A stretch of 64,000 bases of DNA. It comes from Escherichia coli (GTDB lineage: Bacteria; Pseudomonadota; Gammaproteobacteria; Enterobacterales; Enterobacteriaceae). Within the stretch, counting starts at the first letter, position 1, and every line of letters begins with the position of its first letter. Both the position numbers and the translations under genes were made by a program. This document shows, in pieces, positions 60,242 to 62,474 of the stretch. The DNA is taken from assembly GCF_048403405.1 (NCBI RefSeq), contig NZ_CP183129.1. One strand, 5' to 3'. A model generated the notes under the pieces. The model had not been told where the DNA came from. It did no database searches and saw only the letters and a list, made by a program, of their open reading frames with translations.

Positions 60242-60724
60242 TTAAGGGGTAGTAATCACCACTGCGACGCGGCGGTTCTCGGCGCGGCCCTGGGCGGTCT
60301 TGTTACTGGCTATGGGATATTTTTTTCCTAAACCCTGTGTGGTGAGATTGCTGCGCGGAATTTGTCCACCCATAGCCCATGCATCGGCTACGACATTCGC
60401 CCGTTTCAATGATAAGGCTTCGTTGTAACTGTCTTCACCATAGTTGTCGGTGTGTCCATCCATACGGGCATGCGTTAGCCCTGTCGAGGCCAATTTGGCT
60501 GCCATGGTTTGGATCTGTTGCTGGCTTTCCGGGAGCAATTTGTAGTCATTTTTTGCGAACAGAATGGCATCTGATAAGCCCAGCGACCAGTCGCCGGCGG
60601 ATTCAGTAAATCCATAAGATTGCATAGCGGCGACTTGCTCAGGAGTAAACTTTCCCTGAGGGGACTGGCAGCCAGTCAGTATTAGCGAGGTGAAAATCAG
60701 GGGTACTACCAGGTGCTTTATCAT
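60242..60724 (-). CDS. yfiB: OmpA-family outer-membrane lipoprotein YfiB
   Basis: 160-aa ORF with lipobox LTGC and C-terminal OmpA-like peptidoglycan-binding domain. Confidence 0.92.
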   Translation of the reverse strand: MIKHLVVPLIFTSLILTGCQSPQGKFTPEQVAAMQSYGFTESAGDWSLGLSDAILFAKNDYKLLPESQQQIQTMAAKLASTGLTHARMDGHTDNYGEDSYNEALSLKRANVVADAWAMGGQIPRSNLTTQGLGKKYPIASNKTAQGRAENRRVAVVITTP

Positions 60725-60739
60725 ATCGATATATCCTTG

Positions 60740-61966
60740 TTATCTCACCAGCTTTTCGGCACGCTGGTGTTTGGCCTGATACATATTGTGATCGGCCAGC
60801 TCTTGTAATTTTTCCGCAGAGGCATGCTCAATGGTCATCGCGTAACCAATGCTTAATGTCATGGTGGTCTGATGACCATTATGAAGATCAAACGGGCGAT
60901 TAAAGATTTGTGTCAGTGCTGAGCAAATCCGCTGTACTTCGGATTCCGACTGTACACCAAAGAGGACCATCGCAAATTCATCGCCGCCTATGCGGTATGC
61001 TTTATGTTGCAGCCCGCCAAATTCAGCTAACCGTTTTGCGATTTCAATCAAGACTCTATCGCCCGTCGCATGACCCCAGGTATCATTGATATATTTGAAA
61101 TTATCGCCATCAAGAAATAGTAACGCCGACGTTTTTCGGGCATCGGAACTGTTCATCAACGTGTTGATACCGCTACGAAACGCTGCGCGGTTAGCCAGCC
61201 CGGTTAATGGGTCATGTAGTGCGGTACGTAGAAGCTGCGCATTTTTGGCCTGTAAACGAAGCTGCCACTCTTCCATTTCATCCAGCAGACTGTTGAAGTC
61301 GAGAGCGAAGCGGTGAAACTCTGCGATACGTTCTTCCGAAACTCGTCGGGAAAAATTGCGGTTGGAACGCACATCATGTACGACATCGGTGATGTTTTTT
61401 AACGCTTCAACCAGACCATTGTGCAAATGGCGGGTGAGGGTAATTGCGATGCCTGATGCCAGCAGAATGCAGGCGGTCAGGACAGCGAGCGAAAACCAGA
61501 TGAAATGGCTGATTGAACTGTCGCGAGCGGTTAAGCGAACTTCGCCAATGGTTTCACCATTGTGACGAATCGGCTGAACGATGGGGGCAGGGAAGAGCCA
61601 GTGGCTTATGAAATTACTGAAAGTATCGCCTGGATCCTTACGGGTGTAATGCCAGGATGCCAGAATATTTTGCTGCTTATCACGCACTTCTGCAGTTGAA
61701 AATTGCCCTTGCTGCCCCAGCGCTGCCAGTGTTTCAGTTGCTGCAGAGCCATCGGCAAAAACGACCGCTGCTTCCAGACTGTAAGTCATTGTTGCTGCTG
61801 TCAGTGCCAGGTTTTTTTGCGCGTACTGTTTCAGGGTCAGCACCGAGGTCACGGAAAGCAGCAACCAGATCAGCATCATAGTGATAAATATGCTGGTCAT
61901 ACTGATGTTGCGTAATGCTCTTTTAAACGTGGGGCGCTTATTAAGAGAATTATCGTTATCCATCAT
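60740..61966 (-). CDS. dgcN: Diguanylate cyclase DgcN/YfiN (CHASE8/HAMP/GGDEF)
   Basis: 408-aa ORF with two TM segments, HAMP linker and GGDEF domain (RIGGDEF). Confidence 0.93.
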
Positions 61967-62474
61967 TTTTCTTCCGTGCGAGCATTAAGACATCCGGGTT
62001 GACCTTTACTCCGCTACGCGATAAGGCATCCAGGTTTACGGCAAATCTGACGTCATTATTGTGGATGATCAGACAAAAGGCGCTACCAATAATGCACTCG
62101 GTATTTTGTTCGGCAATTAATAATAACGCCCTTGACGGATATTGTTCGGTTAATTCCATCTGGAATGTCGGTGACTCGTTGCCAAAATAAAAACCATTGC
62201 AGCCTGAAATCATCGCCTCTTGTTGAGTGTGAATGATGACAGGCAGATAAGGCAAAGATGTCGCGGCATTCTCTTGTAGGGCGGTACTAAAACGTGAAGA
62301 TGAAAAGATACATAACTTTGGTGGCCCTGATAGCGCAGGCCAGCGGGTGTAACTGACAATACCGGAAACCATCATACGCACGTTTTTCGCAACGTCAGAA
62401 GATTCCTGAGCGAGTATTGGTGCTCCCGTCAGCAGGAGAATCAGCAGTAAGAACAGTCGGTGAGAAAAACGCAT
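61956..62474 (-). CDS. yfiR: Periplasmic repressor of DgcN (YfiR)
   Basis: 172-aa ORF with signal peptide; overlaps dgcN start by 11 nt. Confidence 0.9.

Follow-up and report, generated by a model that had tools for sequence, protein, structure and literature searches.

In the window, the whole stretch of 64,000 nucleotides that was analysed, four full-length genes on the minus strand (yfiL, yfiR, dgcN and yfiB) are collinear with their counterparts in E. coli K-12. A sequence-only reading had described yfiR, dgcN and yfiB as intact, and the ORF list places all three, at full length, at exactly the coordinates claimed. The ORF of yfiL was listed as 62624–63007 from a TTG; the annotated ATG start gives 62624–62989.

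60242–60724, minus strand: yfiB, outer-membrane OmpA/Pal-like lipoprotein of 160 aa (Pfam OmpA, 7.7e-18)
60740–61966, minus strand: dgcN (yfiN), inner-membrane diguanylate cyclase of 408 aa (Pfam CHASE8 and GGDEF)
61956–62474, minus strand: yfiR, periplasmic DgcN repressor of 172 aa (Pfam DUF4154, YfiR/HmsC-like, E = 5.3e-31)
62624–62989, minus strand: yfiL, DUF2799 lipoprotein of 121 aa, lipobox VSGC with Cys17 (Pfam DUF2799, 3.2e-19)

All four products widely exceeded the curated Pfam and NCBIfam cut-offs, and are thus real genes rather than chance ORFs. Named NCBIfam equivalogs were matched by three of the four: DgcN/YfiN (502.8 bits against a cut-off of 325), sequest_YfiR ('regulatory sequestration protein YfiR', 168 against 85) and OMP_LP_YfiB (232 against 128), YfiB also matching the equivalog PRK09967 (348 against 155); YfiL matched PRK11443 (202.9 against 124). 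In PDB sequence searches, the best solved-structure relatives of YfiR, DgcN and YfiB were in each case the Pseudomonas aeruginosa YfiBNR counterparts, namely YfiR, the GGDEF domain of TpbB/YfiN, and YfiB.

Lengths and spacing are the same as in the RefSeq annotation of an identical genome and as in E. coli K-12 MG1655 (b2602–b2605). The MG1655 locus has the same gene order, 11-nt yfiR/dgcN overlap, 15-nt dgcN–yfiB spacer, flanking genes (aroF and rplS) and domain content, and an RxxD inhibitory site is found in neither. The differences are allelic only, amounting to 2 aa in YfiR, 3 in YfiB, 1 in YfiL and 10 in DgcN. The repressor–cyclase–lipoprotein order of three adjacent, co-oriented genes is found here, in K-12 and in relatives of 35–78% identity, and persists at only 35–46% identity in unrelated genomic contexts. 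We therefore read the locus, at a probability of about 95%, as the canonical intact E. coli yfiR-dgcN-yfiB operon with yfiL as a frequent neighbour. This analysis establishes the identity and intactness of the genes, their domains and conserved key residues, the synteny, and the conservation of the overlap. The operon is already known (PMC4992967, PMC10127611, PMC3375315, PMC4887326, PMC8948675) and is real but ordinary, since essentially every E. coli genome carries it (5425 of 5426 complete genomes). It belongs to the core signalling operons of E. coli: periplasmic redox and envelope state act through it on c-di-GMP, which in turn bears on motility, biofilm formation, the arrest of cell division and antibiotic-tolerant growth arrest. 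With an intact copy, the strain is expected to have those responses; beyond correct annotation, this is of little importance.

Domains and key residues of DgcN, YfiR and YfiB

The following features were assigned within dgcN:

61829–61909, minus strand: predicted transmembrane segment 1, aa 20–46 (Kyte-Doolittle score of at least 1.6 in a 19-aa window)
61529–61834, minus strand: periplasmic CHASE8 (PAS-like) sensor, aa 45–146 (Pfam CHASE8, 1.2e-33)
61430–61519, minus strand: predicted transmembrane segment 2 (TM2), aa 150–179 (hydropathy analysis)
61268–61426, minus strand: divergent HAMP-like linker, aa 181–233 (alignment to the Pfam HAMP matches of relatives)
60758–61222, minus strand: GGDEF catalytic domain, aa 249–403 (Pfam GGDEF, 3.2e-42, 144.5 bits)
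60974–60988, minus strand: GGDEF active-site motif, aa 327–331 (sequence)

The two transmembrane segments flank a CHASE8/PAS-like domain that bears the motif AAVVF at aa 66–70, the proposed YfiR-binding patch of P. aeruginosa YfiN (PMC3375315), and DgcN has no periplasmic Cys. The Pfam GGDEF match covers profile positions 1–159 of 161. A degenerate GGDEF motif was the observation that the earlier reading had named as speaking against it, and the motif is intact. DgcN further retains 23 of the 23 invariant columns in an 84-sequence family alignment, including D286, F290, K291, N294, D295, G298, H299, G302, D303, R325 and K399. Judged from the alignment, the domain thus combines an intact motif with the predicted substrate- and metal-binding residues. 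At the position of the primary inhibitory site (aa 318–321) DgcN has GLQH, not RxxD; the K-12 protein has GLRH there and is reported to have no I-sites (PMC10127611). A secondary I-site given as 'N280' in the same work could not be mapped on DgcN, residue 280 being Ser in both alleles.

The claim that DgcN contains a HAMP domain has support from homology but not from a direct match. The Pfam HAMP model did not match DgcN even at E ≤ 10, nor any of its 120 nearest relatives, and the linker (aa 159–252) had no match in a PDB sequence search. The model did match 52 of the 84 full-length CHASE8+GGDEF relatives, more distant YfiN proteins, and these matches align to aa 181–233 of DgcN, which suggests that this region is a homologous but divergent HAMP. 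Weak NCBIfam matches of DgcN cover the TM2 and HAMP regions of BaeS and LapD. In annotation, the HAMP label of enterobacterial DgcN proteins is accordingly one given by homology rather than by a direct model match.

YfiR has a signal-peptide-like N-terminus, as judged by eye, and is a predicted secreted DUF4154 protein in which all four cysteines (Cys55, 92, 127 and 134) align to those of the P. aeruginosa protein (C71, C110, C145 and C152). Several surface residues differ between the two proteins, and the contact residues E163, H177 and Q187 of P. aeruginosa YfiR are replaced by A145, N159 and K169.

YfiB combines a lipobox (LTGC, Cys19) with an OmpA/Pal-like peptidoglycan-binding domain and an N-terminal activation cluster. 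It keeps the equivalents of P. aeruginosa Q39, F48, W55, N68, R96, D102, G105, R117 and E157; among these, the Pal-like peptidoglycan-binding residues Asp93 and Gly96 correspond to D102 and G105, R108 to R117, and the N-terminal Q30, F39 and W46 to Q39, F48 and W55. The residues mutated in a Shigella study (PMC8948675), Cys19-Gln20, Pro22-Gln23, Glu29-Gln30 and Ser36, are all present.

The P. aeruginosa YfiBNR system (YfiB, TpbB/YfiN and YfiR; PA1119–PA1121) has the same R-N-B architecture. In common with the present locus it also has four cysteines in YfiR, the AAVVF patch in the cyclase and, in YfiB, the lipobox, the Asp and Gly that bind peptidoglycan, and Q, F and W of the activation cluster. 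The similarity is distant, with an E-value of only 5e-17 against P. aeruginosa YfiR. P. aeruginosa YfiN has the primary RxxD site (RESD), unlike the present DgcN, and HAMP is recognisable in many Pseudomonas-like relatives, whereas it has diverged here. By description, the locus also resembles Yersinia pestis HmsCDE and Pseudomonas fluorescens AwsXRO, homologous tripartite systems in which a membrane GGDEF cyclase is accompanied by a periplasmic repressor and an OmpA-like lipoprotein (PMC10294631, PMC3375315). Translation of HmsE is activated by CsrA through a long leader; in contrast, the present dgcN–yfiB gap is only 15 nt.

The yfiR/dgcN junction and the borders of the operon

Four short features mark the gene starts, the junction and the downstream border:

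62482–62486, minus strand: Shine-Dalgarno-like GAGGA, 7 nt upstream of the yfiR ATG (sequence)
61956–61966, minus strand: overlap of the yfiR stop and the dgcN start (ATGATGGATAA), 11 nt from the first ATG and 8 nt from the second (read from sequence)
60734–60738, minus strand: Shine-Dalgarno-like AAGGA, 9 nt upstream of the yfiB ATG, inside the dgcN–yfiB spacer (sequence)
60192–60223, no strand assigned: GC-rich hairpin between the convergent rplS and yfiB (terminator scan)

The 11-nt overlap of yfiR and dgcN given in the earlier reading is exact if the first of two adjacent dgcN ATGs is taken as the start: the yfiR stop ends at 61956 and this ATG starts at 61966 (coding strand ...AAAAATGATGGATAACG...). 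In Salmonella, Enterobacter, Citrobacter and Trabulsiella, the orthologous genes use the counterpart of the second ATG as their start, so that the conserved overlap is 8 nt (ATGNATAA). On this evidence, the second ATG may be the ancestral one. Orthologous junctions read ATGAATAA, ATGGATAA and ATGA; seven other loci have a start-stop overlap of 8 nt and one has 4 nt, and an overlap of 4–8 nt is kept in relatives with only 35–46% identity. Because the start-stop overlap is conserved over such wide distances, translational coupling of yfiR and dgcN is plausible, and coupled translation would help fix the ratio of repressor to enzyme.

The Salmonella enterica locus occupies the same chromosomal position between aroF and rplS, with an 8-nt yfiR/yfiN overlap and a DgcN of 74% identity to the present one; both yfiB and yfiL are missing from it. 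Across genera, yfiL is present or absent independently of yfiB. The earlier reading had named yfiL as a lipoprotein adjacent to the module. Adjacency holds, as yfiL precedes yfiR on the same strand at a distance of 149 nt, although the gene lies outside the interval given for the module (60242–62474). A fuller role for yfiL, as a fourth functional member of a co-transcribed yfiLRNB operon that acts with yfiRNB in the envelope, would fit this short distance, the yfiL–yfiR spacer without a convincing terminator or significant RNA structure (z = +0.49), the lipoprotein nature that YfiL shares with YfiB, the same arrangement in Enterobacter kobei and Citrobacter koseri, and the spelling 'yfiLRNB' used for the CFT073 locus, as cited in PMC10294631. 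We nevertheless consider it improbable. Citrobacter sedlakii, Trabulsiella and two more distant lineages have a complete yfiR-yfiN-yfiB set with no yfiL beside it, tblastn revealed no yfiL remnant in the checked loci (L003, L010 and L012), and the literature search found no published function or Yfi-protein interaction. A fourth component was thus largely rejected on synteny: since several genomes retain yfiRNB without yfiL, yfiL is a variable neighbour that is merely adjacent, not a conserved module member.

A scan for sigma-70-like promoters found none above chance (5 found against 5.2 expected), and no Rfam families were found at 57–64 kb of the window. Downstream of yfiB, the hairpin at 60192–60223 has a T7 tail on the plus strand and a UUCUU tail on the minus strand, and the minus-strand RNA folds at −16.6 kcal/mol (z = −2.4); it is likely a bidirectional terminator.

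Proposed signalling and the set-point of DgcN

In orthologous systems of K-12, Shigella and Pseudomonas, YfiR represses the cyclase and its release raises c-di-GMP (PMC4992967, PMC10127611, PMC3375315, PMC8948675). In analogy to these systems, we propose that YfiR would be exported to the periplasm, where its folding would require its two disulfide bonds, and that folded YfiR would bind DgcN at the AAVVF patch of its periplasmic CHASE8/PAS-like domain, holding the enzyme off. YfiR could be lost through misfolding, whether reductive or Dsb-related, or because the peptidoglycan-binding lipoprotein YfiB sequesters it at the outer membrane. Its loss would then allow a conformational change through TM2 and the divergent HAMP-like linker, upon which the GGDEF domains would pair and convert 2 GTP to c-di-GMP. 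As DgcN has no RxxD inhibitory site, this synthesis would not be feedback-limited. The literature on the K-12, Shigella and Pseudomonas orthologues is the source for the redox input, for the part played by YfiB and for the missing product inhibition.

The sequence-only reading had presented the module as a relay from envelope stress to c-di-GMP. The YfiB-mediated relay is the Pseudomonas model (PMC3375315), and this route has been shown mainly in Pseudomonas and Shigella; in E. coli the claim is weakened by a yfiB knockout that left the envelope-stress response of YfiN intact (PMC4992967). In that study, relocation of YfiN under envelope stress was unchanged by yfiB deletion, the demonstrated trigger of the cyclase was reductive or DsbA-dependent inactivation of YfiR, and native expression was below detection. 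These results on the deletion and on native expression make both the YfiB branch and the physiological activity of the locus less certain in E. coli. It is possible, though we think it the less likely case, that the E. coli module is essentially a two-component YfiR–DgcN redox switch, with YfiB as a dispensable or accessory peptidoglycan-anchored lipoprotein rather than an envelope-stress sensor. The survival of YfiN relocation in the knockout and the relief of YfiR repression by DTT or a dsbA mutation (PMC4992967) point this way, as do the retention of yfiR-yfiN at the same locus without yfiB in Salmonella enterica and S. bongori and the many Yfi systems without YfiB noted by Malone 2012. Against it, YfiB retains the residues on which YfiR capture and peptidoglycan binding depend in Pseudomonas, yfiB stays directly downstream of yfiN in relatives of only 35–46% identity, and in Shigella flexneri, a member of the E. 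coli species complex, c-di-GMP and biofilm formation fall when yfiB is knocked out (PMC8948675).

The canonical reading also has to accommodate a rare dgcN allele. Compared with K-12, dgcN has 96.7% nucleotide identity (3.3% differ, against 0.5–1.9% in its neighbours), and DgcN differs at 10 aa: P74S, I130V, G165A, N273S, R320Q, L326I, Y336F, D337G, Q346R and L357R. Seven of these lie in the GGDEF domain, where L326I adjoins the motif and R320Q falls at the degenerate I-site position. P74S (four residues past AAVVF), I130V and G165A (in TM2) are unique to the present allele among the seven compared, and alleles that match it at 99% identity or more occur in only 7 of 5425 genomes. Since activating mutations of P. 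aeruginosa YfiN cluster in the periplasmic domain and TM2, these features could be taken to indicate an altered set-point, through partial insensitivity to YfiR or weaker catalysis, that would make the module unlike that of K-12. Among the proteins retrieved, the one closest to PAO1 YfiN (69% over the GGDEF part) was too distant for the activating mutations to be mapped onto the lineage-unique substitutions. We judge an altered set-point very unlikely. Slighter still is the chance that the lineage-restricted, apparently mosaic allele, through P74S, I130V and G165A in the sensor domain and TM2, and R320Q and L326I near the active site, could shift the YfiR-dependent set-point of an enzyme that lacks product inhibition; if so, the threshold at which c-di-GMP drives biofilm formation or an arrest of division or growth would differ in the lineage.

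Every substitution is either conservative or located in a family-variable column, each invariant residue is kept, and no sign of altered function is apparent; we infer that the present allele behaves like that of K-12. Relative to K-12 there are 27 synonymous and 10 non-synonymous changes, the pattern that ordinary purifying selection would produce. The flanking DNA is likewise rare, with only 181 genomes at 99% identity or more, which argues for lineage divergence plus recombination rather than adaptation.

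Gene content and identity of the yfi locus

Three minus-strand ORFs match exactly the coordinates proposed for yfiB, dgcN and yfiR by the sequence-only reading, while yfiL, described there as adjacent, does sit just upstream of yfiR but falls outside the range that had been given for the module (60242-62474). The genes are as follows.

60242-60724, minus: yfiB, 160 aa, from the six-frame ORF list; Pfam OmpA (7.7e-18)
60740-61966, minus: dgcN (yfiN), 408 aa; Pfam CHASE8 at aa 45-146 (1.2e-33) and GGDEF at aa 249-403 (3.2e-42)
61956-62474, minus: yfiR, 172 aa; Pfam DUF4154 'YfiR/HmsC-like' (5.3e-31)
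62624-62989, minus, from the annotated ATG: yfiL, 121 aa; Pfam DUF2799 (3.2e-19)

With a TTG extension, the yfiL ORF in the six-frame list spans 62624-63007. NCBIfam equivalog models were judged against their curated cut-offs, and every score was far higher: 502.8 bits (cut-off 325) for DgcN/YfiN, 168.1 (85) for regulatory sequestration protein YfiR, 232.4 (128) for outer membrane lipoprotein YfiB, 348.4 (155) for PRK09967 (YfiB) and 202.9 (124) for PRK11443 lipoprotein (YfiL). Top matches in a PDB sequence search were all from Pseudomonas aeruginosa, namely YfiR (5e-17), YfiB (1e-31) and, for DgcN, the TpbB/YfiN GGDEF domain (3.5e-29). A GAGGA element lies 7 nt ahead of the yfiR ATG, and the 15-nt dgcN-yfiB spacer holds an AAGGA Shine-Dalgarno-like element. 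Between the convergent rplS and yfiB, a GC-rich hairpin at 60192-60223 ends in a T7 tail (plus strand) or a UUCUU tail (minus strand), making a bidirectional terminator plausible.

The yfi finding is real and its essentials were interpreted correctly; the operon is a textbook part of the E. coli core and already known. The residual novelty is small, comprising a rare dgcN allele, a HAMP label given by homology only, the question of an 8-nt or 11-nt overlap at the dgcN start codon, and the still putative role of YfiB, and the role of YfiL, in E. coli.

DgcN active site and putative HAMP linker

Inspection for GGDEF degeneracy found the motif intact at aa 327-331. In an alignment with 83 full-length relatives (27-78% identity), the majority found by searching 1.84 billion cluster representatives exhaustively, DgcN keeps 23 of 23 invariant residues, including D286, K291, N294, D295, H299, D303, R325, G328-F331 and K399. 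Hydropathy analysis placed transmembrane segments at aa 20-46 and 150-179, flanking CHASE8, which contains at aa 66-70 the AAVVF motif, proposed as the YfiR-binding patch by Malone et al. (PMC3375315). The RxxD position reads GLQH, leaving no RxxD site there. Hsieh et al. described E. coli YfiN as lacking both inhibitory sites, with GLRH at this position, leading to runaway synthesis and GTP depletion (PMC10127611).

The HAMP domain, for which the sequence-only reading proposed a check, is supported by homology and not by direct match. Pfam HAMP did not match the window DgcN even at E<=10, none of its 120 nearest database relatives has HAMP recorded, and searching PDB sequences with just the linker gave only noise. 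On the other side, among the 84 full-length CHASE8+GGDEF homologues in the alignment, 52 are matched by Pfam HAMP (best E-value 8e-9), and the HAMP stretches of three example homologues align onto aa 181-233 of DgcN, the same position as the HAMP modelled at residues 183-236 of P. aeruginosa YfiN. The family consensus carries HAMP-like signatures (Pro-Leu in the first helix, IAE...DFNxLLxEL in the second), the E. coli linker lacks the consensus proline (...LVEAL...), and the window DgcN gave weak NCBIfam matches to BaeS and LapD that fall on their TM2+HAMP regions. The linker is best described as a homologous but divergent, putative HAMP domain.

The yfiR/dgcN junction, YfiR and YfiB residues, and input

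With the yfiR stop codon ending at 61956 and the first dgcN ATG starting at 61966, the genes overlap by 11 nt, as originally reported (coding strand ...GGAAGAAAAATGATGGATAACG...). Two ATGs follow each other directly at the start of dgcN, and in K-12 and the window the gene is annotated from the first (MMDND...). In Salmonella enterica, S. bongori, Enterobacter kobei, Citrobacter sedlakii, C. koseri and Trabulsiella, the orthologous gene begins at the second-ATG position (MDKD..., MNKE...), with an 8-nt yfiR overlap, ATGNATAA. The extra upstream ATG of E. coli comes from the YfiR C-terminal codons AAT-GAT, which are CAG-CAT in other genera. The overlap is likewise ATGGATAA in a 46%-identity relative in frsA/crl context, and the junction is ATGA in a 35%-identity relative in Pseudomonas-like context. 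With relatives down to 35% identity retaining it, a start-stop overlap of repressor and cyclase is conserved over wide distances, and this arrangement fits translational coupling of yfiR and dgcN. Three singleton predicted proteins of 512-542 aa from E. coli assemblies (P0004, P0005 and P0019) fuse DUF4154+CHASE8+GGDEF or OmpA+CHASE8+GGDEF, corresponding to yfiR-dgcN or dgcN-yfiB read-through; frameshifts or misassembly at the tightly packed junctions probably account for them.

The YfiR N-terminus resembles a signal peptide, and the protein contains exactly four cysteines (55, 92, 127 and 134). These align with C71, C110, C145 and C152 of its P. aeruginosa counterpart, which form disulfides. 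A few Pseudomonas YfiR contacts are not kept (Pa E163 to A145, H177 to N159, Q187 to K169), and such mismatches are expected given the evolutionary distance. YfiB has an LTGC lipobox (Cys19), and its Pal-like peptidoglycan-binding residues Asp93 and Gly96 correspond to Pa D102 and G105. Its N-terminal Q30, F39 and W46 correspond to Pa Q39, F48 and W55, positions that, in Pseudomonas YfiB, are activating when mutated or anchor the protein to YfiR (PMC4887326). It also has every residue mutated in Shigella YfiB, i.e. Cys19-Gln20, Pro22-Gln23, Glu29-Gln30 and Ser36 (PMC8948675).

[quoted passage not shown] In E. coli, Kim & Harshey reported that YfiN is repressed by YfiR, that repression is relieved by DTT or a dsbA mutation, and that envelope stress then moves active YfiN to the division site, also in a yfiB knockout (PMC4992967). 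Knockout of yfiB in Shigella flexneri lowers c-di-GMP and biofilm formation (PMC8948675). The description of an envelope-stress to c-di-GMP relay is thus fair for the family; in E. coli itself the firmly established input is reductive stress through YfiR.

Population context, the dgcN allele and neighbouring genes

Of 5,426 complete E. coli genomes searched by megablast with 60000-63300, 5,425 carry the locus, always on the chromosome and annotated as rplS / yfiB dgcN yfiR yfiL / aroF. K-12 MG1655 (b2602-b2605) has the same genes, lengths, 11-nt overlap and 15-nt spacer. Six complete genomes (MS 69-1, TUM14771, GN02461, 4621, TUM1226 and OX030728) match the 3.3-kb locus at 100% identity, and only 13 of 5,425 match it at 99% or more; dgcN alone reaches at least 99% in 7 genomes, the remaining alleles being 90-98.2% identical. 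For the flanking 3.7-kb grpE-ffh segment (54000-57700), identity of at least 99% is seen in only 181 of 5425 genomes. The window represents an uncommon E. coli lineage.

Differences from K-12 (nucleotide; amino acid)
dgcN: 3.3%; 10 aa
yfiB: 1.9%; 3 aa
yfiR: 1.0%; 2 aa
yfiL: 0.5%; 1 aa
rpsP-rplS operon: almost no nucleotide differences

The divergence of dgcN from K-12 (~3.3%) is several-fold above that of its neighbours, with 27 synonymous and 10 non-synonymous changes. Among seven dgcN alleles compared, GGDEF-domain substitutions recur in some other strains: Q320, I326, F336, G337, R346 and R357 occur in SW070912, and S273 and R357 in MRY15-131. This sharing suggests a mosaic allele. P74S, I130V and G165A are unique to the window allele. 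The pattern looks like the ordinary outcome of lineage divergence and recombination for a gene under weaker constraint; no loss or gain of function is suggested. Two sharp peaks of 15 differences per 250 bp each against K-12 (57750-58000 and 63000-63250; background 0-3) sit in the intergenic (promoter) stretches between ffh and rpsP and between yfiL and aroF.

The yfiL gene, with a VSGC lipobox, shares the strand of yfiR and is located 149 nt upstream of it; in the spacer, a terminator scan and RNA folding revealed neither a terminator-like hairpin on this strand nor significant structure.

Presence of yfiL beside yfiR, and of yfiB
E. coli (window, K-12): yfiL present; yfiB present
Enterobacter kobei: yfiL present; yfiB present
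Citrobacter koseri: yfiL present; yfiB present
Citrobacter sedlakii: yfiL absent; yfiB present
Trabulsiella: yfiL absent; yfiB present
Salmonella: yfiL absent; yfiB absent
Two distant loci (L010, L012): yfiL absent; yfiB present

Given this patchy presence, yfiL counts as a variable neighbour, not as one of the module's conserved components. On the Salmonella bongori contig L015 (1990-2508), yfiR is called as two ORFs of 107 and 64 aa; the repressor gene may be disrupted here, ahead of an intact yfiN. A PepSY_TM + DUF2946 gene pair lies between yfiB and rplS in Enterobacter and Citrobacter (L004 5722-7535, L013 4221-6054 and L014 4223-5998), and in neither E. coli nor Trabulsiella.

In K-12, the CP4-57 prophage adjoins ssrA. 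In the window, ssrA (tmRNA; 48394-48756, minus) lies within ~12 kb of ypjA, ypjCB, glaH and lhgO (36000-48756), so this strain appears to lack CP4-57. Rfam matches at the gathering threshold comprise a five-tRNA cluster, the MicA sRNA, naRNA4 and a single tRNA (5595-6319, 9233-9304, 32125-32201 and 40437-40509), as expected for this chromosomal region.
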